A stretch of 64,000 nucleotides of DNA from Patescibacteria group bacterium (GTDB lineage Bacteria; Patescibacteriota; Microgenomatia; UBA1400; PJMF01): contig JAHDXH010000001.1 in assembly GCA_023382875.1 (NCBI GenBank), forward strand, positions 18,571 to 82,570, written 5' to 3'. Below the pieces are notes generated by a model that saw only the letters and a list, made by a program, of their open reading frames with translations, was not told the origin of the DNA and made no database searches. The position numbers were made by a program, and so were the translations under genes. Positions 11,639 to 20,541 of the stretch are shown here, one piece after another (position 1 is the first letter of the stretch; the number at the start of each line of letters is the position of its first letter).

Positions 11639-12535
11639 ATGGCAGCAGCACAGAATGTTTCTTCGGAAAAACGTGAAAGTTTCGATTTCGGCAAGTTCGT
11701 GTCGGATGTGGTCAGCAAGCTCCCCGCCCGTGATAAGGTGGCGGCTCGTCTCAACAAGATTGACCTCGTTCTGACCCCCTTCTACGCAGTGCTGATGGCA
11801 TGGGCAACCTACGCCATTGGTATCAATTTTCTTCGCTTCGGTCCTACCGACGTGGAGAGCCTGAACTATTTCGTCAGCCTGTACGCTGGACTGAGCCTCG
11901 TTGCCTTCGCTATCGTTCTGGTCGCCCTCTTCGAGAGTGTGCGCCGCAATGAAATCGGAGACATGGCGAAAGTCATCGCAGCCATCGCTATCAATTATGT
12001 GGCGATGCGTTACAACGGTACATGGCTTATGATGGTGCTGGCGTATGGCTTCGGCTTCTCGCTGGCGCACTCTGCATCCCGGAACGGTAAGTTAGACTGG
12101 ACACCGTTGGTCGCGTTCAACGCTTCCTTCATCGGTCTGGCGACCCAGATTTTTGGTTTCGCCGCCGCGTCCGTAGTCTGGCCCGTGCTGGTGGGTGTCG
12201 TGTTTCAGGCAGTAGAAGTTTTCCGCAATCAGGATTACCGCGCCGTAAGGCTGGCGGTGCCGGGGATGGTTATTGCTGTTCTCGGTCTGGTCTTGACCAT
12301 GAATCCCGTGCTGTGGATTTTGCTGGGGGCTTTGGTCAGCTTCGTTGTCGCTCCAACCGCGTTCAAGCTCTATGAGAGCAAGCACGCGAAACTGGAAGAT
12401 ACGGTCAAAAGCTGTGCCACTCCCTGCGCCGATTTCGACAATGGCATGAAGAACCTGCGGACAAACGCTGAAGCAGCAATGCTGACGCTCGTTTCGTCCT
12501 GCCTGTTTATCATCGTCATGGTCATGTTCTCGTAA
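11639..12535 (+). CDS. hypothetical 7-TM membrane protein encoded in a GC-rich island (codon usage unlike its neighbours)
   Basis: 298 aa and strongly hydrophobic. GC-rich third codon positions (ctg, gcc, ttc, cgc). No recognisable family. Confidence 0.5.
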   Translation: MAAAQNVSSEKRESFDFGKFVSDVVSKLPARDKVAARLNKIDLVLTPFYAVLMAWATYAIGINFLRFGPTDVESLNYFVSLYAGLSLVAFAIVLVALFESVRRNEIGDMAKVIAAIAINYVAMRYNGTWLMMVLAYGFGFSLAHSASRNGKLDWTPLVAFNASFIGLATQIFGFAAASVVWPVLVGVVFQAVEVFRNQDYRAVRLAVPGMVIAVLGLVLTMNPVLWILLGALVSFVVAPTAFKLYESKHAKLEDTVKSCATPCADFDNGMKNLRTNAEAAMLTLVSSCLFIIVMVMFS

Positions 12536-12559: not shown

Positions 12560-12590
12560 AGGGCGCCTTCAAAGCGCCCTCGTTCTGTAT
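12560..12590 (+). terminator. intrinsic terminator-like hairpin AGGGCGC-cttcaaa-GCGCCCT followed by a T-rich tract
   Basis: Perfect 7-bp GC-rich stem at 12560-12580, then cgttctgtattt. Confidence 0.5.
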
Positions 12591-12602: not shown

Positions 12603-15600
12603 TTATTGAATTTTTACCTGACTATTGATGAAGTGGAAGTGGTCCAAAACAGTTTTTGTTTCTGGCAACACTCCTTTGACAATGAAATCGTTGCCAAATA
12701 ACTTTGGTAACAAATCATTTTCTTTGGAGAATAAACTCTCTTTGAACATCATTTTTGCTTCAACTGAGCCAATCCACAATGCCTTATAGGGATTATTTTC
12801 TACCACTACATTACTAAGGTTTTCCTTAGTCAAAATGTTTTTGAATTGCTCTGGAACCTGTTGTGGTTTTTGATCCAAAGTTTCAGCATTGATTTGGTAG
12901 AAAAGTTTACCCTTTTTATCAGGTCCAACGGTGGCTGATAAATCAGCTTCTTGGTTGATTAAAGCTAAAGTTGAACTATTCACAAAATGGAAATTATCAA
13001 CCATTGAGTTGGTGGGTTTGAGAATTCCTACGACTTTGACTTTTGGCAAGCCAAAAAAATTATTCAACTCGTCCCCCACTTTGTTAATTAATTTTTCTTC
13101 AATCATCATTTGCGCTTCATTGGCACCGATGATAATTTCGTTGTCATTTAAGTTTCCTTGACCTTGGTTGAATGGCAAGCTGATTAACTCTTCTTTTTCG
13201 ACCGCCAAAAATAGTTTTGGTGCTTTATCTAAGTAAGTTATTTTGCCTTGTGAATAAGCAAAAATTTGATTAGCCGCTTTGGTAATTTTAGGATTAACAA
13301 CAGCACTACTCATTTCACTACTATTCATTTGACTACTAAATTTGGCAAATTCCACAAACATTAAACTGAAAACAACAATCATGATGATTGGTGCGACCAT
13401 AGATATATAGTTTTTGCGGTTTGGCTTGTATAAGCGCAAGAGTAATGAGTTGGCCACTACTGAGACAGAACTTAATGCCATGGCTAATCCAGCTAATTCT
13501 GGTTTAAGCACTAATCCAAAGGCAACAAAGAGTCTGGCGGCAATTGGAATACCCATGACGTTATACAAAAGGGCAAAGAATAAGTTTTGTTTAATTTTGC
13601 CAATCGTTTCTTTTGACAAGTTGATGGCGTGAACAACATCATTAAGATCATTTTTAATAATGACAATGCCACCTGTCTCCATGGCTACGTCGGTGCCTGA
13701 GCCCATAGCGATACCTAGCTCGGCTTGAGCTAATGCTGGCGCGTCGTTAACGCCATCACCTACCATGGCTACTATATGTCCTTGCGATTGAAGTTTTTTT
13801 ACTTCATTGACTTTATCTTTTGGTAAGACTTCTGCTAATACATTGGTGATGCCGACTTGTTTGGCGATCGCTTCTGCTGTTCTTTTGTTATCACCGGTAA
13901 TCATATAAATGGCTAAGCCCATTTTTTGAAGTTTTTCGATGGCTGCTTTTGAGTTTGGTTTGACGGTATCGGCAACAGCGATTAAACCTTCAATTTGTTT
14001 TTTGTTGGCCAAAATCATGACGGTTTTGCCTTGATTTTCCAGTTCATGAATTTGAGCATCAATTTCTTTGGTTGAATGTTTGAGGTATTCAGCAATCAAT
14101 TTTTTATTACCAAAATAATAAGTTTGATTATCGATTTTGGCAGTGACACCATGGCCAACAATTGCTTCAAAATCAGAAACTTTTTTGAGATCTAATTTTA
14201 AGCTTTGAGTTTTTTGATAAATGGCTTCAGCCAATGGATGCTCAGATTGTTTTTCTAAACTCCCAACAATAGTTAAGAGTTGTTTTTCATCTATTTTTTC
14301 TAAACTGATGACATCGGTAACACTGGGTTTACCAACAGTAATGGTGCCAGTTTTATCAAAAATGACAGCCGTAATTTTGCAAGCTTGTTCAAGTGGTTCA
14401 CCACCTTTGACTAGAATGCCATGTTCAGCACCTTTGCCCGTGCCAACCATAATGGCCGTAGGCGTAGCTAATCCCAATGCACATGGACAGGCAATAACGA
14501 TGACAGCTGTAAAAGCCATCAATGCTGTTGATAAGGTTGCACCTAAAACAAAGAACCAAACCACAAAAGTAAGAATGGCGATGATAATAACAGCCGGAAC
14601 AAACCAAGCAGAAATTCGATCGGCCAAATCTTGAATTGGTGCTTTGGAGCCTTGGGCTTCTTCAACTAATTTAATGATTTGTGCCAAGGTAGTTTCACTA
14701 CCAACTCTCGTGGCGGTGAATTCAAAACTACCAGTTTTGTTGATGGTGCCACCAGCAACTTTGTCGCCGGCCTGTTTGGCTACCGGTAAACTTTCGCCGG
14801 TCAACATTGATTCATCGACTGACGATGAGCCTTTGGTAATTTTGCCATCGACAGGAATTTTTTCTCCCGGTCTAACCAAAATTACATCGCCAACTTTAAC
14901 TTCATCGATCGGAATATCTGTAGTTTTATTGCCTCTCACAACTCTAGCTGTTTTTGCTTGAAGTCCCATTAGTTTTTTAATGGCAGTTGAAGTTTTACCT
15001 TTGGCTTTAGCTTCCAAAAGTTTTCCCAAAATCACGAACGTGATTAGGAAAGCAGCGGTTTCAAAATATAGTTCGGGAATTTTTGCGCCTTCAATACCAA
15101 TAACCGATTCAGTGATAAAAGCATAACGAAGGAAATTGAATAAGCTATAAAAATAGGCCACCGAAGTGCCAATAGCAATCAAACTATCCATGTTAAAAGT
15201 TTTCATCCGTAAGGCAGACCACATGCCTTGGTAGAAACTTTTACCAACAATGAATTGAATTGGGGTAGTAAGGATTAAAGAAATAATGCCTACATAGGGC
15301 AAAAGCAGTTTAGCGCCAAAAAAGTTGGGCACAAAATCAAAAATCATGAAGTAAGCCATGGGCAAACTCAAAATCAAACTAAAGATAAATTTTTGCAGTT
15401 GGTTTTTTTCTTCGTGATGGTGATGGTGAGCTGAGTCAGCTTCAATTTGTTGAACGTTGTCACCTAGTTCCTGTGCATGGTAACCAGCTTTTTTGACAGC
15501 CTCAATAATCGTTTCTGAGTTGGTGTCATTTTCTGCCACAACCTGCGCTTTTTCATTAGCATAATTAACATGCGCTTCTTTAACTCCAGGAACTTTTTTA

Positions 15601-15674
15601 ATTGAAAGTTCAACTAGACTGGCACATGAAGCACAGTGCATACCGTGAATTGCATAGCGTTTGGTTGCTGGCAT
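12603..15674 (-). CDS. copA: copper-translocating P1B-type ATPase (CopA-like) with an extra C-terminal TM helix and a roughly 270-aa MacB/FtsX-like extracytoplasmic domain
   Basis: N-terminal [15 protein letters not shown]. His-rich AHHHHHEE. Ion-binding CPC in ACPCALG. Phosphorylation [13 protein letters not shown]. After the last canonical TM (..LLLRLYKP) the ORF continues for about 275 aa with one more TM and a soluble domain carrying two repeats ([20 protein letters not shown] and [20 protein letters not shown]). Confidence 0.85.
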
Positions 15675-15699
15675 AGTTTCCTTTTATATTTTTTGTTTT

Positions 15700-17121
15700 T
15701 TAATTTGTGACTTCGATAATGCCGGTGGCCATACCCATCCAGCAGCTAAAACGAAACTTGCCGGTTTTGGTTGGGGTAAAAGTTTTAACAGAAGTTTGAC
15801 CAGGACTCAGTCTAATTTCCCCGTCAAAGAAGTCTTTGGCAATCACGGCATTAGTACAGCCGGAAGCACCATTGTCGGTAATTCTCCACTCCACCGGTTG
15901 GTTAACTTTGACTTTAATGTAGTCTGGTTCGTAACCACCGGCGGTAGCGGACATTTCGACGATTTGTTTTTCACCTGCCTGTGTTGGACTGGTGAAAGTT
16001 GAATCTTGTTTGCTATTAATGAAATAGGCTGAGAAGTTTGGCCAACCTAAAACATTAAAAGCAGAATTGATATTAAAAAGTGAGAACAAAATGATAAGTA
16101 AACCAGCGACTTGTGAGAAAAATCTAGTGACGTGGGGTCGTTTATTAAACATTAAGCTAGACAAGCCGATGAATAACAAAATTGGTGCAGTACCTAAGGC
16201 AAAAGCTAACATGATCAGGGCGCCGCGGATGGGGTCGCCAGACAGTAGTGCGATTCCTTGAGTGGTGATGGTAAAACCACATGGTAGTAGAACGGTGCCG
16301 GCGCCCATCAAAGCAGGCATTAACCGACCAGAAAAGTTTCTTTGATCAGCAAGGTTGCGAGTCAAAACTTTTGGTAGTTTTGGTTGGAATTTATTGGCCC
16401 ACTCTACTCCCAACATTTGCAAAGATAAGACCACCATCAAAATAGAAACAAAAATTGTGATTAGAGCAGAAAAGGAAATAGAAATTTGGAAAACATTTCC
16501 TAATGATCCCAAAAGAAATCCTACTAAAGTGTAAGAAACTAGTCTGCCTAAATTAAATAAAATTTGTGGTTGAAGTTTTTCTGTCAGACTATTGGAAGTT
16601 TGATAGAGTTCAGCCCATTGTTTTGACATTGATAAAACAATTCCGCCAACTAAAGCTGAGCAGGTGGAAAAACCAGCAATTACACCAAAGGCGATAAATG
16701 CAAACAGTGAAGATTCGGCATTTACACTAAGTGCAATTGCTCCTGAGCTAGAAAATTTCAAAAAAGCACCAAAAATAATTGCCACAATAGTGAGGGCTGG
16801 CAACAACTGCAGCATTCGACTAAAGTTCCAAATGATTTCTCCATCACTTGTGACTTGGAAAAATGGTTCAGCTTTTTGTGTTCTTTCATCTTTAGAATCA
16901 TAAAAAGTGTAACCATCTTTTTTGAATAATTTGTTTAGCTTATTTGGGTTTGGAGCATCTCCGGTAAATTCAATTAAGACTGATTTATCTTTTTGTGAAA
17001 CTTCAACTGATTTAATATTTTCTTTTTCTAGAAGTTTATTTTCAATCAAAAGTTCGCATGATGCGCAGTGCATGCCTTCAACAAAGTACTGTTTTTCTGA
17101 GCAGAGGTTTTTTTCTGACAT
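15700..17121 (-). CDS. HMA-domain membrane permease (DsbD_2/TauE-like multi-TM core) with a C-terminal cupredoxin-like domain. Probable copper binding or transport.
   Basis: N-terminal GMHCASCE metal-binding motif. About 8 TM segments. C-terminal domain KVNQPVEWRITDNGASGCTNAVIAKD...FRFSCWMGM resembles cupredoxin_1-type domains found with heavy-metal transporters. Confidence 0.6.
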   Translation of the reverse strand: MSEKNLCSEKQYFVEGMHCASCELLIENKLLEKENIKSVEVSQKDKSVLIEFTGDAPNPNKLNKLFKKDGYTFYDSKDERTQKAEPFFQVTSDGEIIWNFSRMLQLLPALTIVAIIFGAFLKFSSSGAIALSVNAESSLFAFIAFGVIAGFSTCSALVGGIVLSMSKQWAELYQTSNSLTEKLQPQILFNLGRLVSYTLVGFLLGSLGNVFQISISFSALITIFVSILMVVLSLQMLGVEWANKFQPKLPKVLTRNLADQRNFSGRLMPALMGAGTVLLPCGFTITTQGIALLSGDPIRGALIMLAFALGTAPILLFIGLSSLMFNKRPHVTRFFSQVAGLLIILFSLFNINSAFNVLGWPNFSAYFINSKQDSTFTSPTQAGEKQIVEMSATAGGYEPDYIKVKVNQPVEWRITDNGASGCTNAVIAKDFFDGEIRLSPGQTSVKTFTPTKTGKFRFSCWMGMATGIIEVTN

Positions 17122-17126
17122 GGGAA

Positions 17127-17609
17127 TTAATTGCTGTATTTCTCAGGATTGTCTTTGAATCTGTGCAGGCATCCTTCAGCGCAAAAGTAATAATTAATAT
17201 TTTTATAATTAGTTGAATAACTGGCAATTTTGGGTGAAAGTCTCATGCGGCAAACTGGATCTTGAACGATGGGTAAAAGTTTTTCAAAGTCATCACACAT
17301 GGCTTTGGCGGTTTTTTTGTCAGAAATATCTTTAATCAAAACTTCTCTGATTAAATCAGAGGCTAATAAATAATTGGGATGAGTGATGTGATAGAAAACT
17401 TCTTTGCCTTCTTTTTTGGTACAGACAATTTTGGCTGCACGAAGTATAGAAAGGTGCTGACTCAAATTGGCTTGGGGCAAATTTAACATCTCAATCATTT
17501 GATTGACGTTAACTGTTTGGTCGCGAAGTAAATTAAGAATTTCCAGCCTTTTGGGATTGGCTAGGGCTTTAAGAACGTTGGCGTGAATTTCAAAAATCTG
17601 AGAATACAT
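17127..17609 (-). CDS. ArsR/SmtB-family metal-responsive repressor with a C-terminal TRASH/YHS-type Cys-rich metal-binding domain
   Basis: wHTH LKALANPKRLEILNLLRDQTVNVNQMIEMLNLPQANLSQHLSILRAAKIV. C-terminal PVCRMRL...YFCAEGCLHRFKDNPEKY. Confidence 0.75.
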   Translation of the reverse strand: MYSQIFEIHANVLKALANPKRLEILNLLRDQTVNVNQMIEMLNLPQANLSQHLSILRAAKIVCTKKEGKEVFYHITHPNYLLASDLIREVLIKDISDKKTAKAMCDDFEKLLPIVQDPVCRMRLSPKIASYSTNYKNINYYFCAEGCLHRFKDNPEKYSN

Positions 17610-17635
17610 ATTCGATATATTGAATATATTCTCTT
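17610..17635. promoter_or_regulatory. AT-rich palindromes at the ArsR-like gene start (candidate autoregulatory operator)
   Basis: TATATTgAATATA (13-bp palindrome) overlapping the perfect 10-bp palindrome GAATATATTC, immediately at or upstream of the ATG at 17609. Confidence 0.3.
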
Positions 17636-17721
17636 GTTAATAAAAAAGCAAGGGTGATTTTTTGATCTAGTAATTTGCTGATTCTCCGGTTAAAATAGCG
17701 TTCTTGTTAAGCTAAAGCAAA

Positions 17722-18522
17722 TTGATGACCGAGTTGATCATAACTTTTAGAGAAACTTTAGAAGCCTCATTAATCGTAGGAATCGTTTTAGCATATCTTT
17801 CCCAAACAAATAGACAGTTTTATAACAAAATAGTTTTCTTGGCCGTTGGCGCTGCTTCTTTGCTTAGTGCAATTTTGGCTATTATTTTCAATAATTTTTT
17901 AGGTGGTTTTACTGGCCGCACTGAGGAGATCTTTGAGGGTTTAATCATGATTGCTGCTTCTATTATGGTTTCTACAATTGTGATTTGGATGATGAGGCAA
18001 AGTCATAGTTCAGGGCAGATTAAAAAACAAGTAGATTCTCATCTGGAAAAAAGCCAAGCGTTTGGTTTATTTGGTTTGGTATTTTTATCAGTTTTAAGAG
18101 AAGGTGTAGAGGTGGTTTTGTTCTTGGGAGCCAAAAGTTTGATGAGTACAGAAAATTTTGGCTTTGCCTTATTAGGCATGTTGGTGGCAATTATAATTGG
18201 CTTGCTGATTTTTAAAGTCGGTGTCAAAATTAGCTTGAAACCTTTCTTTATGTTTTCAAGTATTTTTCTTATTTTGTTTGGAGCAGGTTTATTTGCTCAT
18301 GGCATTCACGAATTAGAAGAAGCAAAGCTGGTTAATCCTGTAGTCGAACACGTTTGGGACATTGGTAGATTTTTGAGCGAAAGTAAAGGTTTTGGTTTGT
18401 TCTTGAAAGATATTTTTGGCTATAACGCCAACCCTTCGCTTACGGAAGTTGGCTCTTATATTTTTTATCTTAATGCTCTTTATCTTTATTACCTATTAAT
18501 TAGTAAAAGAACATCACTATGA
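17722..18522 (+). CDS. FTR1/EfeU-family iron (or lead) permease-like membrane protein
   Basis: Two RExxE motifs in TM helices (FRETLEASL near the N-terminus and LREGVEVVLFLGA mid-protein). 266 aa with about 7 TM. Confidence 0.6.
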   Translation: MMTELIITFRETLEASLIVGIVLAYLSQTNRQFYNKIVFLAVGAASLLSAILAIIFNNFLGGFTGRTEEIFEGLIMIAASIMVSTIVIWMMRQSHSSGQIKKQVDSHLEKSQAFGLFGLVFLSVLREGVEVVLFLGAKSLMSTENFGFALLGMLVAIIIGLLIFKVGVKISLKPFFMFSSIFLILFGAGLFAHGIHELEEAKLVNPVVEHVWDIGRFLSESKGFGLFLKDIFGYNANPSLTEVGSYIFYLNALYLYYLLISKRTSL

Positions 18523-19346
18523 ATGATCAAAAAGTTCTTCTTCATGTAGTTTGTGACTATGCCCCAGCTGGCATGGAATTTGGTGAGATTACCACTCGCT
18601 TGGATCACGATTTGGCTAATCCAAGTAACGTGAGAATTCATACAACTTCAGTTCCATCTTTGGATACGATGGCCGTAGGTTTTGTGACCGCGCAATATGC
18701 TTTGGCACCATACAATGGCCGTATGGTTATTTATGGCAACGCTGCTCCTCGCCGTAGTTCTGATAAAGCTACCACCAATAATATTGACCACGGTATTAAA
18801 TACGCTAAATTGAAAAATGGCGTGGAAATTATTAACGTTAACTCAGAATTTGCTTTCGGTTTCATGAAAGATCAGATTGTTGAGTTTTATAACATTGATT
18901 GTCCAAATAGTGGATCTCAGTTCCGCTCTCGTGATTTTTTCCCAGAAAGAGTGGCTAAATTAATCAATGGCGACAGAAGTGTCTTAACTGAAAAACTTAA
19001 TATTGATGATATTCCTGAGGTACCCAATAACTTAGTTGCTTGGACTGACGGTTTTGGTAATATTAAAACCTCCATGAGACTTTCTGATTTGCAAAAACTT
19101 GGTTTTGAATCGGGCGAAAGTGTTCAAGTGATTTTGAACGGTGTTTCTATGGTTGGTGTAGTTGGGGTTGGCGGCTTCAGTGTTGATCGCGGTGTTTTGG
19201 CTGTTAACATCGGCTCTTCTGGTTACGATGATCCATTCATTGAACTCTTCCTTCGTGTTCACCACATTAGTGAACAAGCTGCCGCAGTAAGATTTAATTA
19301 TCCAGAGGGTGGTACGCCATTTGAGCTAAAAAAATTAGCTAGATAA
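18519..19346 (+). CDS. DUF62 family protein (SAM hydroxide adenosyltransferase / halogenase-like fold)
   Basis: Recalled similarity to archaeal DUF62 proteins: HTTSVPSLDTMAVGFVTAQ, GRMVIYGNAAPRR, RDFFPERVAKL, TDGFGNIKTSM and LAVNIGSSG. The ATG overlaps the stop of the FTR1-like gene (ATGA). Confidence 0.5.
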   Translation: MNDQKVLLHVVCDYAPAGMEFGEITTRLDHDLANPSNVRIHTTSVPSLDTMAVGFVTAQYALAPYNGRMVIYGNAAPRRSSDKATTNNIDHGIKYAKLKNGVEIINVNSEFAFGFMKDQIVEFYNIDCPNSGSQFRSRDFFPERVAKLINGDRSVLTEKLNIDDIPEVPNNLVAWTDGFGNIKTSMRLSDLQKLGFESGESVQVILNGVSMVGVVGVGGFSVDRGVLAVNIGSSGYDDPFIELFLRVHHISEQAAAVRFNYPEGGTPFELKKLAR

Positions 19347-19359
19347 TTTTAAGTTGAAA

Positions 19360-20541
19360 TTAATGATGATGCCCGCCGTGATGGTGGGCATCTTTTTTTG
19401 ACTCATCTTCAGGATCAAGTTTAGTTTTAGTGAAAACATAGGCGGCTAAGGCAGTTGCGAGTGGTGCAGCAAAAATCAAACCAATACTGCCAACCAGCAT
19501 TTTGACAATTTCCTCTGCCACCAATTCAAATTCTAAAATATCAATGAAGCCTTTGTTTGAGCCAAAGAAAAGTAAAAGCAGCGGCAATGAGGCTCCGGCA
19601 TAAACTAAAACTAAAGTATTAACCATTGATGAAATATGATCTTGGCCGACCTTCATACCTTTTTGGAAAAGTTTTAAAAAGCCAATGGCAGGATTGGTTC
19701 TTTTGATTTGTTCGACAACGGAAGCTTGACCAATGGTCACGTCATCTAAAATACCTAGTGTGCCAATGATAATTCCGGCCAATAGTAAGCCCTTAATATC
19801 AATCGTGCCATGTCTTTCGATTTGTAGGAATCCTGCTTCCTCGCTGGCAAAGCCGGTCAAATAGGTCTGTTTGATAAAAATGAGAGCTAAGGTGCCAGTA
19901 AAAGCCAAAGAAATTAGGGTGGTAATAACACCGACATGAGTCTTTTTGTTAATACCGTGAGAAACGTAAAAAGTGGCGGGGATAATGACGGCTGCACCGA
20001 TGAGTGTAGAAATAACCGGATTGTAACCATTAATAATCATAGGAATAATCTGGTAAAAAATTACCAAAAATGAAATACAAAGTCCCACTAAAGACATCAT
20101 GCCCCAAATTTTTCCGATGGCTAAAACAGCGATAATAAAAAGAAGTGTTAATCTAATTAGTCCATGTCTCTTGATTTTCCCTTGAATAATAAACTCTGGT
20201 TGTTCACTTCCATCGAAGTAGCTTAAACGAATTTTATCGTTGGTTTTGTAGTTTTCATATTGAGCGGTAATATCCACACCTGCGCTCGAATTTTTAACCA
20301 AGAACACTTGGTCTTTGTATTCTGAGTTGGTTAATTTCACTTCTAATTGCTGATATGGAACCAGTTCGCCATTAAACGATTCTTTGCCTGTTTCTTTGAC
20401 CTTAATGACCACGCCTTCTGCACTCACAGGTTCTGCTAAAGGCTCTGTGGTTTGTGCAAATGCCTGACTTTTGAAGCCAATTAATATGGCTACACAAGTG
20501 AAAAAAATAAATAGGTTTTTTTTGAAACTTTGAAAAGTCAT
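19360..20541 (-). CDS. YibE/F-family membrane protein with signal peptide, extracytoplasmic N-domain and a C-terminal His-rich tail
   Basis: Signal peptide ending AFAQ. Roughly 130-aa soluble domain, then multiple TM helices. C-terminus DAHHHGGHHH. Confidence 0.55.
   Translation of the reverse strand: MTFQSFKKNLFIFFTCVAILIGFKSQAFAQTTEPLAEPVSAEGVVIKVKETGKESFNGELVPYQQLEVKLTNSEYKDQVFLVKNSSAGVDITAQYENYKTNDKIRLSYFDGSEQPEFIIQGKIKRHGLIRLTLLFIIAVLAIGKIWGMMSLVGLCISFLVIFYQIIPMIINGYNPVISTLIGAAVIIPATFYVSHGINKKTHVGVITTLISLAFTGTLALIFIKQTYLTGFASEEAGFLQIERHGTIDIKGLLLAGIIIGTLGILDDVTIGQASVVEQIKRTNPAIGFLKLFQKGMKVGQDHISSMVNTLVLVYAGASLPLLLLFFGSNKGFIDILEFELVAEEIVKMLVGSIGLIFAAPLATALAAYVFTKTKLDPEDESKKDAHHHGGHHH

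Follow-up and report, generated by a model that had tools for sequence, protein, structure and literature searches.

A Probable Copper Efflux Operon with an ArsR-YHS Regulator and an Extended CopA in a Patescibacteria Group Bacterium

Do the six genes clustered between positions 12603 and 20541 of a 64-kb stretch of DNA from a Patescibacteria group bacterium form one integrated locus for the handling of copper and iron, or do they represent a copper operon together with its neighbors? The whole of this stretch (64,000 nucleotides of contig JAHDXH010000001.1) is called the window in this report. Three of the genes are encoded on the minus strand: an ArsR-YHS regulator, a protein with HMA, DsbD_2, and cupredoxin domains (denoted HDC), and an extended CopA. 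They are divergent from the genes for an FTR1-family permease and a DUF62-like protein (denoted D62L), which are followed by a convergent gene for a YibE/F-family membrane protein. All six open reading frames (ORFs) were found at the positions first reported for them. The original prediction combined the six genes into an integrated copper/iron locus. Our sequence comparisons suggest that this supercluster is mostly local synteny, a copper operon plus neighbors. The segment from 12.56 to 17.63 kb is probably a single autoregulated operon for the efflux of Cu(I)/Ag(I), and FTR1, D62L, and YibE/F are probably its synteny neighbors and not parts of the copper system.

The proteins of the window were searched against Pfam and NCBIfam, with a relaxed Pfam run that extended to E = 10. 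The context of HDC was determined from 80 metagenome loci retrieved with HDC, of which 62 have sufficient downstream DNA and 71 could be used for the upstream gene. The context of D62L was determined from 82 loci (80 from reference genomes and 2 via metagenome look-up), 74 of which were analyzed for neighbors. The operator motif was screened across 168 fetched loci. The closest relatives of the window locus are L003, L083, L165/L166, and L167/L168, where L165–L168 are Logan contigs. Close relatives of the window proteins are all from Paceibacteria/Pacebacteria-type metagenome-assembled genomes (MAGs), and the sequence of the window D62L is that of a protein named from a Patescibacteria-group MAG. 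An exact-sequence look-up with the D62L of the window and with P0001 returned 0 contigs.

The Minus-Strand Operon and Its Regulator

The genes for CopA (positions 12603 to 15674, minus strand; 1023 amino acids), HDC (15700 to 17121, minus strand; 473 amino acids), and the ArsR-YHS regulator (17127 to 17609, minus strand; 160 amino acids) are separated by gaps of 25 bp (CopA/HDC) and 5 bp (HDC/regulator), in agreement with the spacing of 5 to 25 bp described before. Terminator-like hairpins delimit both the minus-strand unit, at 12560 to 12580, and the plus-strand unit, at 19368 to 19399. The first of these is GC-rich, lies between the convergent ends of CopA and orf298, and can form on both strands, with 9 pairs (6 of them GC) when read on the minus strand and 7 when read on the plus strand. 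It is likely to be the 3′-end of the cop transcription unit.

The arrangement of HDC and CopA recurs far outside of the window. The gene for CopA is found 3′ of HDC on the same strand within 300 bp in 31 of 62 metagenome loci, within 1 kb in 46, and within 5 kb in 61. The gene directly upstream of HDC encodes CsoR (PF02583; ∼90 amino acids) in 45 of 71 loci. ArsR-YHS is encoded there in the window, L003, L083, L165–L168, and L148, and in L126 an ArsR-YHS gene is found ∼2.6 kb upstream of HDC. The complete order of regulator, HDC, and CopA is also found in L003, L083, and L165–L168. HDC followed by copA is thus a widely conserved module that is headed by CsoR as a rule and by ArsR-YHS here. Since CsoR heads the module in 45 of 71 loci, ArsR-YHS occupies the usual slot of the copper sensor. 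An FtrD-like membrane protein (PF10080, E = 1.4e-24) replaces CsoR upstream of HDC in 8 of the 71 loci, including L084 and L085.

The regulator had been described as an ArsR protein with a C-terminal TRASH/YHS domain, and both domains were recovered with Pfam: HTH_5 (PF01022; 2.6e-11, 43.6 bits versus 22) and YHS (PF04945; 1.3e-14, 54.3 bits versus 30.3). The score against NF033788 is 80 bits, versus a cutoff of 55. The YHS/TRASH module has the ligand pattern D117-x2-C120-x22-C143-x3-C147, with the same spacing as that of the copper-responsive adenylyl cyclase from M. phlei, and its three cysteines are retained in L003, L083, and L148. A search of the regulator for the classical metal sites of the ArsR/SmtB family identified neither the CxC of helix 3 nor the D-x-H...H-x2-E/H pattern of α5, and C63 and C105 are not retained in L003. 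The best matches among solved structures include PagR, Rv0081, HlyU, NolR, and BigR, which we take to be members of the ArsR/SmtB family that do not sense metals.

Two palindromes at the start of the regulator had been proposed as candidate operators. Both of them, TATATTgAATATA (17616 to 17628) and GAATATATTC (17622 to 17631), are present and are part of ATATTCgATATATtGAATAT (17608 to 17627), an imperfect palindrome of 20 bp that overlaps the start codon of the regulator. The longer palindrome occurs once in the window, versus 0.01 occurrences expected by chance, and it is intact in five of six related loci with one mismatch in the sixth. A block of 28 nucleotides around it is conserved in L003 (one change), L083, L165, and L167, in an intergenic region that has otherwise diverged. 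Across the 168 loci, the core of the motif was found exclusively at the starts of arsR-YHS genes. Single palindromes of 10 nt are frequent, with 76 in 64 kb, and the significance of this element therefore rests on its conservation. It is credible, judging from this conservation, that the palindrome is an operator, and the segment from 17600 to 17633 is a candidate operator and core promoter.

A second conserved block, GGT[T]AAAAT, is found on the plus-strand (FTR1) side of the intergenic region at a variable distance from the palindrome. Promoter calls were limited to such conserved blocks because a scan for consensus sigma-70 promoters gave 21 matches, versus 20.5 in shuffled sequence. A hairpin with a T-run behind it (CTCTTGTTAATAAAAAAGCAAGGG, then TGATTTTTTG; 17631 to 17664, plus strand) lies between the palindrome and the FTR1-side block; L167 retains it, and it is missing from L003, L083, and L165.

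HDC and the C-Terminal Extension of CopA

HDC was originally described as an HMA permease that ends in a cupredoxin-like domain. The Pfam matches agree with this description and identify the membrane core: HMA (2.9e-9), DsbD_2 (PF13386; 1.3e-30, 107.2 bits versus 24.9), and Cupredoxin_1 (PF13473; 8.3e-11, 42.3 bits versus 27). The HMA domain (C19-x2-C22) is followed by one linker transmembrane helix, the DsbD_2 core of six transmembrane helices, and a C-terminal cupredoxin domain of the CupA type. Two helices of the DsbD_2 core contain one invariant cysteine each, C154 and C281. A Cu(I) motif, C...C-x-M-x-M, has been described for CupA (PMC5552934). The corresponding residues of HDC, C422...C460-x-M462-x-M464, align to the ligands of CupA. 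These residues, the CxxC pair of the HMA domain, and the membrane cysteines do not vary among 22 homologues that are 47–94% identical to the HDC of the window. The best matches of the C-terminal domain among solved structures are CupA from S. pneumoniae (E = 4.8e-6) and the cupredoxin-like metal-binding domain of the S. pneumoniae CopA (E = 0.0046).

The combination of these domains had been regarded as non-canonical, and this did not hold: at least 1479 homologues were found, and nearly all of the best-scoring 120 have the three-domain architecture. Those that are named carry the labels "sulfite exporter TauE/SafE family" or TauE/SafE/plastocyanin/CopZ. A literature search (DsbD_2 with copper, PF13386, and Patescibacteria CopA/FTR1) found nothing on the HDC fusion or on the CopA extension. 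Membrane cores of the CcdA type have an N-out/C-out topology. The CupA-like domain of HDC comes after seven predicted helices and the positive-inside rule points outside. From the helix count, the hydropathy, and this rule, the HMA domain is predicted to face the cytoplasm and the CupA-like domain to lie outside the cell.

CopA was recognized by Pfam through its HMA, E1-E2_ATPase, and Hydrolase domains, and it scores above the curated cutoffs of TIGR01511 (633.3 bits versus 397) and TIGR01525 (674.8 bits versus 346). The Argüello classification defines P1B-1 ATPases by the motifs CPC, N-x6-YN-x4-P, and M-x2-SS-x5-N. All of the P1B-1 motifs are present in CopA, with CPC at residue 396, YN at residue 704, and M-x2-SS-x5-N at residue 732, along with FDKTGT. 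The N-terminal HMA domain carries MHCASC. A run of five histidines (SAHHHHHEE; residues 83–88, ∼15411 to 15428, minus strand) is found in the linker that connects the HMA domain to the first membrane helix.

The P1B ATPases have eight transmembrane helices and an N-in/C-in topology. CopA had been described as extended, and it departs from this plan of eight helices and a cytoplasmic C-terminus, with a ninth hydrophobic helix and a tail of 242 amino acids past the last canonical helix. The ninth helix (residues 754–781; 13332 to 13415, minus strand) has a Kyte–Doolittle value of 2.48, is helical in the AlphaFold2 (AF2) model, and is preceded by a loop rich in lysine and arginine. It is predicted to take the C-terminus outside.

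The extension itself (residues 782–1023; 12606 to 13331, minus strand) consists of two homologous repeats of ∼110 amino acids that originate from an internal duplication, as judged from an alignment score of 106 versus 30 ± 5.6 for shuffled sequence. No match was found in Pfam at E = 10, the MacB core domain PF12704 included, or in NCBIfam. The AF2 model of the extension has a predicted local distance difference test (pLDDT) score of 87, and its predicted fold is that of the extracytoplasmic domains of MacB/LolC/YknZ/YbbP. The only fold matches are the protein- or substrate-handling ectodomains of the type VII ATP-binding cassette (ABC) transporters. The fold is thus common with the ectodomains of MacB, LolC/LolE, YknZ, YbbP, YtrF, and HrtB, but there is no match to their sequence families. 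The setting also differs in that the domain occurs twice in tandem behind one helix, as the last part of a P-type ATPase, is not inserted between the first and second transmembrane helices of an FtsX-type permease, and has no ABC ATPase partner.

Homologues of the extension number at least 20 and are 35–47% identical to that of the window. This tally (∼20) is a lower bound since the word-indexed protein search overlooked the 1023-residue CopA of L165–L168. Every homologue with upstream sequence is joined to the C-terminus of a Cu-ATPase. Stand-alone homologues of 248 amino acids were considered as separate genes and rejected, as they are found at the ends of contigs with the reading frame open to the edge. 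The invariant residues in an alignment of 21 sequences (alignment A2) include M856, M857, D893, and H896 in the first repeat and M976, D1011, and H1014 in the second. Both repeats retain an invariant E-A-x-M-M helix and D-x2-H-F strand.

The CopA of 1023 amino acids is present in the window, L165/L166, and L167/L168. The pump core is 93.5% identical to that of the window in L167/L168 and 85.1% identical in L165/L166, where the tail is 66.7% identical. The CopA of L003 (4760 to 7033) and L083 (8458 to 10731) has 757 amino acids, no tail, and a core that is 49% identical to that of the window. The regulator and HDC of these two loci are orthologous to those of the window (67–75% identical), and the regulator, HDC, D62L, and flanking genes are 58–82% identical. 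Because the core of CopA is so much less similar than its neighbors, it appears that copA has been exchanged in place. An extra gene of 136 amino acids with no match in Pfam is found 3′ of copA in L003 and L083. The copA of L003 is broken into two ORFs by a frameshift or an assembly error.

What, then, does the extension do? One answer is that it has nothing to do with metal and is a module for binding the envelope or a partner, like the FtsX/MacB-type ectodomains, that was gained by domain shuffling. The fold, which resembles only protein- or substrate-handling ectodomains, speaks for this answer, as do the lack of cysteines, the possibility that the methionines and histidines are core residues, and the faster divergence of the extension relative to the pump core (66.7 versus 85.1% identity in L165/L166). 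Nevertheless, the extension is always attached to the C-terminus of a Cu-ATPase wherever upstream sequence exists, and the Met-Met, Asp, and His residues are invariant in both repeats among sequences that are only 35–47% identical to that of the window. We consider a function unrelated to metal to be possible, although on balance doubtful.

FTR1, D62L, and YibE/F beside the Operon

The FTR1/EfeU-family permease (17722 to 18522, plus strand; 266 amino acids) matches PF03239 (6.5e-47, 160.6 bits versus 25.3) and has the two REXXE motifs that had been noted, RETLE at residue 10 and REGVE at residue 126. Its start is more likely to be the ATG at 17725 than the TTG at 17722. The permease has the FTR1 family and the two REXXE motifs in common with the EfeUOB and FtrABCD systems, but it scores below the equivalog cutoff for EfeU (NF041756; 195.4 bits versus 255), and no EfeO, EfeB, P19, or FtrD adjoins it in the window, where its neighbors are the regulator and D62L.

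The gene for D62L (18519 to 19346, plus strand; 275 amino acids) overlaps that for FTR1 by the ATGA previously noticed, at 18519 to 18522. The assignment of this protein to DUF62 held for the superfamily but not for the family. D62L has no match in Pfam at E = 10, PF01887 and PF20257 included, or in NCBIfam, and a single-sequence search of solved structures gave only a match of E ∼1 to fluorinase. The AF2 model (pLDDT 78; predicted template-modeling score, pTM, 0.80) was compared with known structures using Foldseek, and the 28 best matches (E ≤ 1.6e-9, TM-score ∼0.65–0.73) are all DUF62 S-adenosylmethionine (SAM) hydrolases, fluorinases, or chlorinases. An exhaustive profile search returned 404 cluster representatives. 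The group of proteins that are 60–89% identical to D62L constitutes one cluster, after which the score falls from 555 to 230 bits. Of the distant relatives that were tested (25–42% identity), most reach SAM_HAT_C/SAM_HAT_N at E ≤ 0.01, with three above the gathering score, and a broader profile of D62L matches 2zbu, 2f4n, and 2wr8 with E-values of 3e-10 to 2e-6. The predicted fold and the transitive homology indicate that D62L is a divergent member of the SAM-hydrolase/fluorinase superfamily that is outside of the characterized hydrolase family.

The two-domain fold, an N-terminal aspartate (D13), and the asparagine of the D-x-FGN motif (N181, in WTDGFGN) are common to D62L, DUF62, the fluorinase FlA, and the chlorinase SalL. 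D13 and N181 are the equivalents of D16 and N215 of FDAS in the SAM site. Of the two sequence motifs IDxxFGN and PxNGL, the first reads WTDGFGN in D62L and the second is partly kept as LKNGV with N100 and G101. The water-activating triad of the hydrolases is D68-R75-H127 in the numbering of PH0463 (PMC4859513). In a profile alignment to 2wr8, the corresponding residues of D62L are A76, K83, and R136, and this region instead has the invariant residues N74, R78, Q134, R136, and R138. The residues of the halide site of fluorinase/chlorinase are not evident.

D62L belongs to a tight orthologous group (60–89% identical) that extends from Patescibacteria to MAGs labeled Acidimicrobiia. It adjoins a divergent gene for trigger factor in 53 of the 74 loci analyzed, with IF3-L35-L20-PheST further out. 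Downstream of it are found Ferric_reduct (PF01794) on the same strand in 24 loci (directly adjacent in ∼10), miaB in 33, and miaA in 28. In Patescibacteria, D62L typically lies between a divergent gene for trigger factor and a row of genes for a membrane protein of the Ferric_reduct type, miaB, miaA, and a PerM-like permease (for example, in L010, L014, L018, L024, L047, and L053). In the MAGs labeled Acidimicrobiia, a gene similar to AIR synthase/SelD is just upstream of D62L. A search of the window with the trigger factor, DUF5660, IF3, Ferric_reduct, miaB, and miaA of these relatives found none of them.

The pairing of FTR1 with DUF62 had been noted as a non-standard one. Among the relatives checked, it is confined to the window, L167/L168, L003, and L083, and FTR1 is missing in L165/L166. 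L003 is the only one of the 82 D62L loci with both FTR1 and the cop genes, and three further loci of this kind are L083 and L167/L168. In L165/L166 the genes from an epimerase to a PRK/uridine kinase are in the same order as in the window, including the operon, D62L, and YibE/F, but without FTR1, and the GGT[T]AAAAT block is immediately upstream of D62L. Since D62L is elsewhere mostly beside trigger factor and FTR1 is missing in L165/L166, the pairing is a clade-specific juxtaposition.

The YibE/F-family membrane protein (19360 to 20541, minus strand; 393 amino acids) matches PF07907 (1e-68, 231.9 bits versus 27.2), has a signal-like N-terminus, and does end in the His-rich tail that had been pointed out, ...KKDAHHHGGHHH*. 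The terminator-like hairpin of the plus-strand unit, with its T7 run (19368 to 19399, plus strand; 11 pairs, 7 of them GC), starts 22 nt past the stop codon of D62L. Its complement encodes the KKDAHHHGG of the tail, and L165 and L167 retain its stem. The window and L167 share the ending DAHHHGGHHH, L165 has DAHQHGGHHH, and L003 ends in HKERSFHSH. From these sequences the tail appears to be clade-specific, being limited to a genus-level clade. That it might be a conserved metal-binding feature of the YibE/F lineage was considered and rejected on account of the ending in L003 and of the coincidence with the hairpin; because its codons complement a conserved hairpin, the sequence of the tail may reflect RNA structure as much as metal binding. 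A literature search on the function of YibE/F found nothing.

On the other side of the operon, orf298 (11639 to 12535, plus strand) encodes a multi-pass membrane protein with no match in Pfam. Its GC content is 54.5% (67.6% at third codon positions), and that of the 64-kb window is 37.5%. The positional counterparts of orf298 in L167, L165, L083, and L003 are also enriched in GC relative to their own loci. In L003 (10940 to 15144) and L083 (1543 to 4583), D62L is followed by genes for a Met-rich lipoprotein of the plastocyanin/azurin family, DUF4395, a CcdA-type DsbD, a BlaI/CopY-type repressor, and an MsrA-like protein. The whole window was searched with the plastocyanin lipoprotein, CcdA, BlaI-like, and MsrA genes of these relatives, and none was found.

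An integrated copper/iron locus would have ArsR-YHS governing both divergent units from the shared region of 112 bp, with D62L and YibE/F as accessory proteins. The divergent arrangement of cop and FTR1 in the window, L167/L168, L003, and L083 is in its favor, and the ATGA overlap points to cotranslation of FTR1 and D62L. However, L165/L166 have lost FTR1 and have kept everything else, with the promoter-like block now directly upstream of D62L; 79 of the 80 HDC loci have no match to FTR1 or D62L; the GGTAAAAT block that is conserved on the FTR1 side is ∼60–90 bp away from the palindrome, at a spacing that varies; the ATGA overlap is replaced by a gap of ∼35 bp in L003; and YibE/F is absent from the L083 locus. 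Control of both units by ArsR-YHS is accordingly improbable in our judgment. It can be argued further that uptake of the FTR1 type needs a copper-dependent oxidation step, and hence a tie to copper genes that bear cupredoxins. The Met-rich plastocyanin-family lipoprotein that comes after FTR1-D62L on the same strand in L003/L083, which resembles the arrangement of FtrC and FtrB, and the FtrD-like genes upstream of HDC are consistent with such a tie, which we nonetheless consider very unlikely given the same loci without FTR1. What stands of the original prediction is the copper unit on the minus strand and its recurring gene order. The integration with FTR1, D62L, and YibE/F is not supported, because the pairing of FTR1 with D62L is not conserved and the YibE/F tail is limited to one clade. 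The plus-strand FTR1-D62L unit and the convergent YibE/F gene have a promoter-like element and a terminator of their own.

A putative role for D62L as the dedicated partner enzyme of membrane iron/redox proteins, in which it handles a SAM-derived small molecule for iron uptake or reduction, would fit the ATGA overlap with FTR1, the Ferric_reduct gene downstream on the same strand in ∼24 of 74 loci (directly adjacent in ∼10), and the retention of the SAM-binding D13/N181 where the hydrolase triad gives way to the invariant N74/R78/Q134/R136, but this role is highly improbable in view of the commonest neighbors of D62L, which are housekeeping genes (trigger factor, IF3-L35-L20, miaB, and miaA), the different neighbors in the MAGs labeled Acidimicrobiia (an AIR-synthase-like gene and others), and the loss of FTR1 beside D62L in L165/L166.

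A Proposed Mechanism for Copper Efflux

The reading that we prefer is that of a single autoregulated efflux operon. A dimer of ArsR-YHS would occupy the palindrome over its own start and keep the operon repressed, and the binding of Cu(I) at the Asp/Cys3 site of the YHS module would free the repressor. CopA would then export Cu(I), and the CupA-like domain of HDC, outside of the cell, would capture the exported Cu(I) or hand it on. The pair of membrane cysteines in HDC could relay Cu(I) or maintain the outer cysteines in the reduced state. In the clade of the window, copA would have been swapped in place for a form whose product carries a ninth helix and an outer domain of the MacB type in tandem, which would probably act at the exit of the pump, either as an acceptor of Cu(I) or as a docking or gating module.

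Several considerations weigh against this proposal. The metal specificity, the DNA binding, and the topology of the cop proteins are all deduced from sequence. The outside placement of the CupA-like domain is a prediction from hydropathy, the positive-inside rule, and the topology of CcdA-type proteins only, and CupA from S. pneumoniae, unlike the domain of HDC as placed here, works on the cytoplasmic face of the membrane, where it is held by a single N-terminal anchor and delivers Cu(I) to the metal-binding domain of its CopA. The conserved methionines and histidines of the CopA extension may be structural and not metal ligands, since they fall at the usual hydrophobic-core positions of MacB-type domains. 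Some coregulation of cop and FTR1 is possible, since four of five related lineages retain the divergent arrangement.

A more elaborate version of the efflux operon, in bacteria that have one membrane and a tiny genome, would have a station outside of the cell for the hand-off of Cu(I), where the tandem MacB-like tail of CopA and the CupA domain of HDC would receive Cu(I) at the exit and hold it bound and reduced. The membrane cysteine pair of HDC may connect the outer CupA-type domain with the cytoplasmic HMA domain. These two parts are not known to have been described together, and their role may be like that of CusF/CusCBA or the CopC-type proteins in bacteria that have a periplasm. We regard the hand-off station as speculative and unlikely.

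The operon is similar in several respects to known copper systems. The order of repressor, CupA-type Cu(I) protein, and CopA is the same as that in the copY-cupA-copA operon of S. pneumoniae (Fu et al. 2013, as described in PMC5552934). The window differs from that operon in that ArsR-YHS takes the place of CopY, that the CupA-like domain, which is predicted to face outward, is the C-terminal part of a fusion with an HMA domain and a 7-TM (seven transmembrane helices) DsbD_2 core, and that the N-terminal domain of CopA is an HMA domain and not a cupredoxin. The CsoR-CopZ-CopA operons of Bacillus/Mycobacterium also combine a Cu(I)-sensing repressor, an HMA protein with a CxxC motif, and a P1B-1 pump, but the clade of the window has ArsR-YHS in place of CsoR and a large membrane fusion protein in place of the soluble CopZ. 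The TRASH domain is reportedly the subject of work by Ettema and co-workers in 2003. The archaeal copper regulators of the Sulfolobus CopR/CopT type similarly join a DNA-binding helix-turn-helix domain to a Cys-rich TRASH/YHS module and are encoded beside copA, but the helix-turn-helix domain of the window regulator is of the ArsR/SmtB type and not Lrp-like, and its host is a bacterium. What is unusual about the operon is the use of ArsR-YHS for CsoR, the rare MacB-like tail of CopA with its predicted outward placement, and the neighboring gene for a DUF62-superfamily protein without the triad.

The handling of copper in Patescibacteria is essentially unstudied. Proteins of the HDC type are routinely annotated as members of the "sulfite exporter TauE/SafE family", and because the CopA gene nearly always comes right after that for HDC, this protein is probably a widespread and uncharacterized component of copper handling. 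We know of no P-type ATPase with an outward MacB-like domain, and none was found in the literature search. As a very strongly conserved member of its superfamily without the hydrolase triad, D62L is a candidate enzyme for SAM chemistry of a new kind. If the placement of the CopA extension is true, the outward domain would be a handle on the fate of Cu(I) past the pump.

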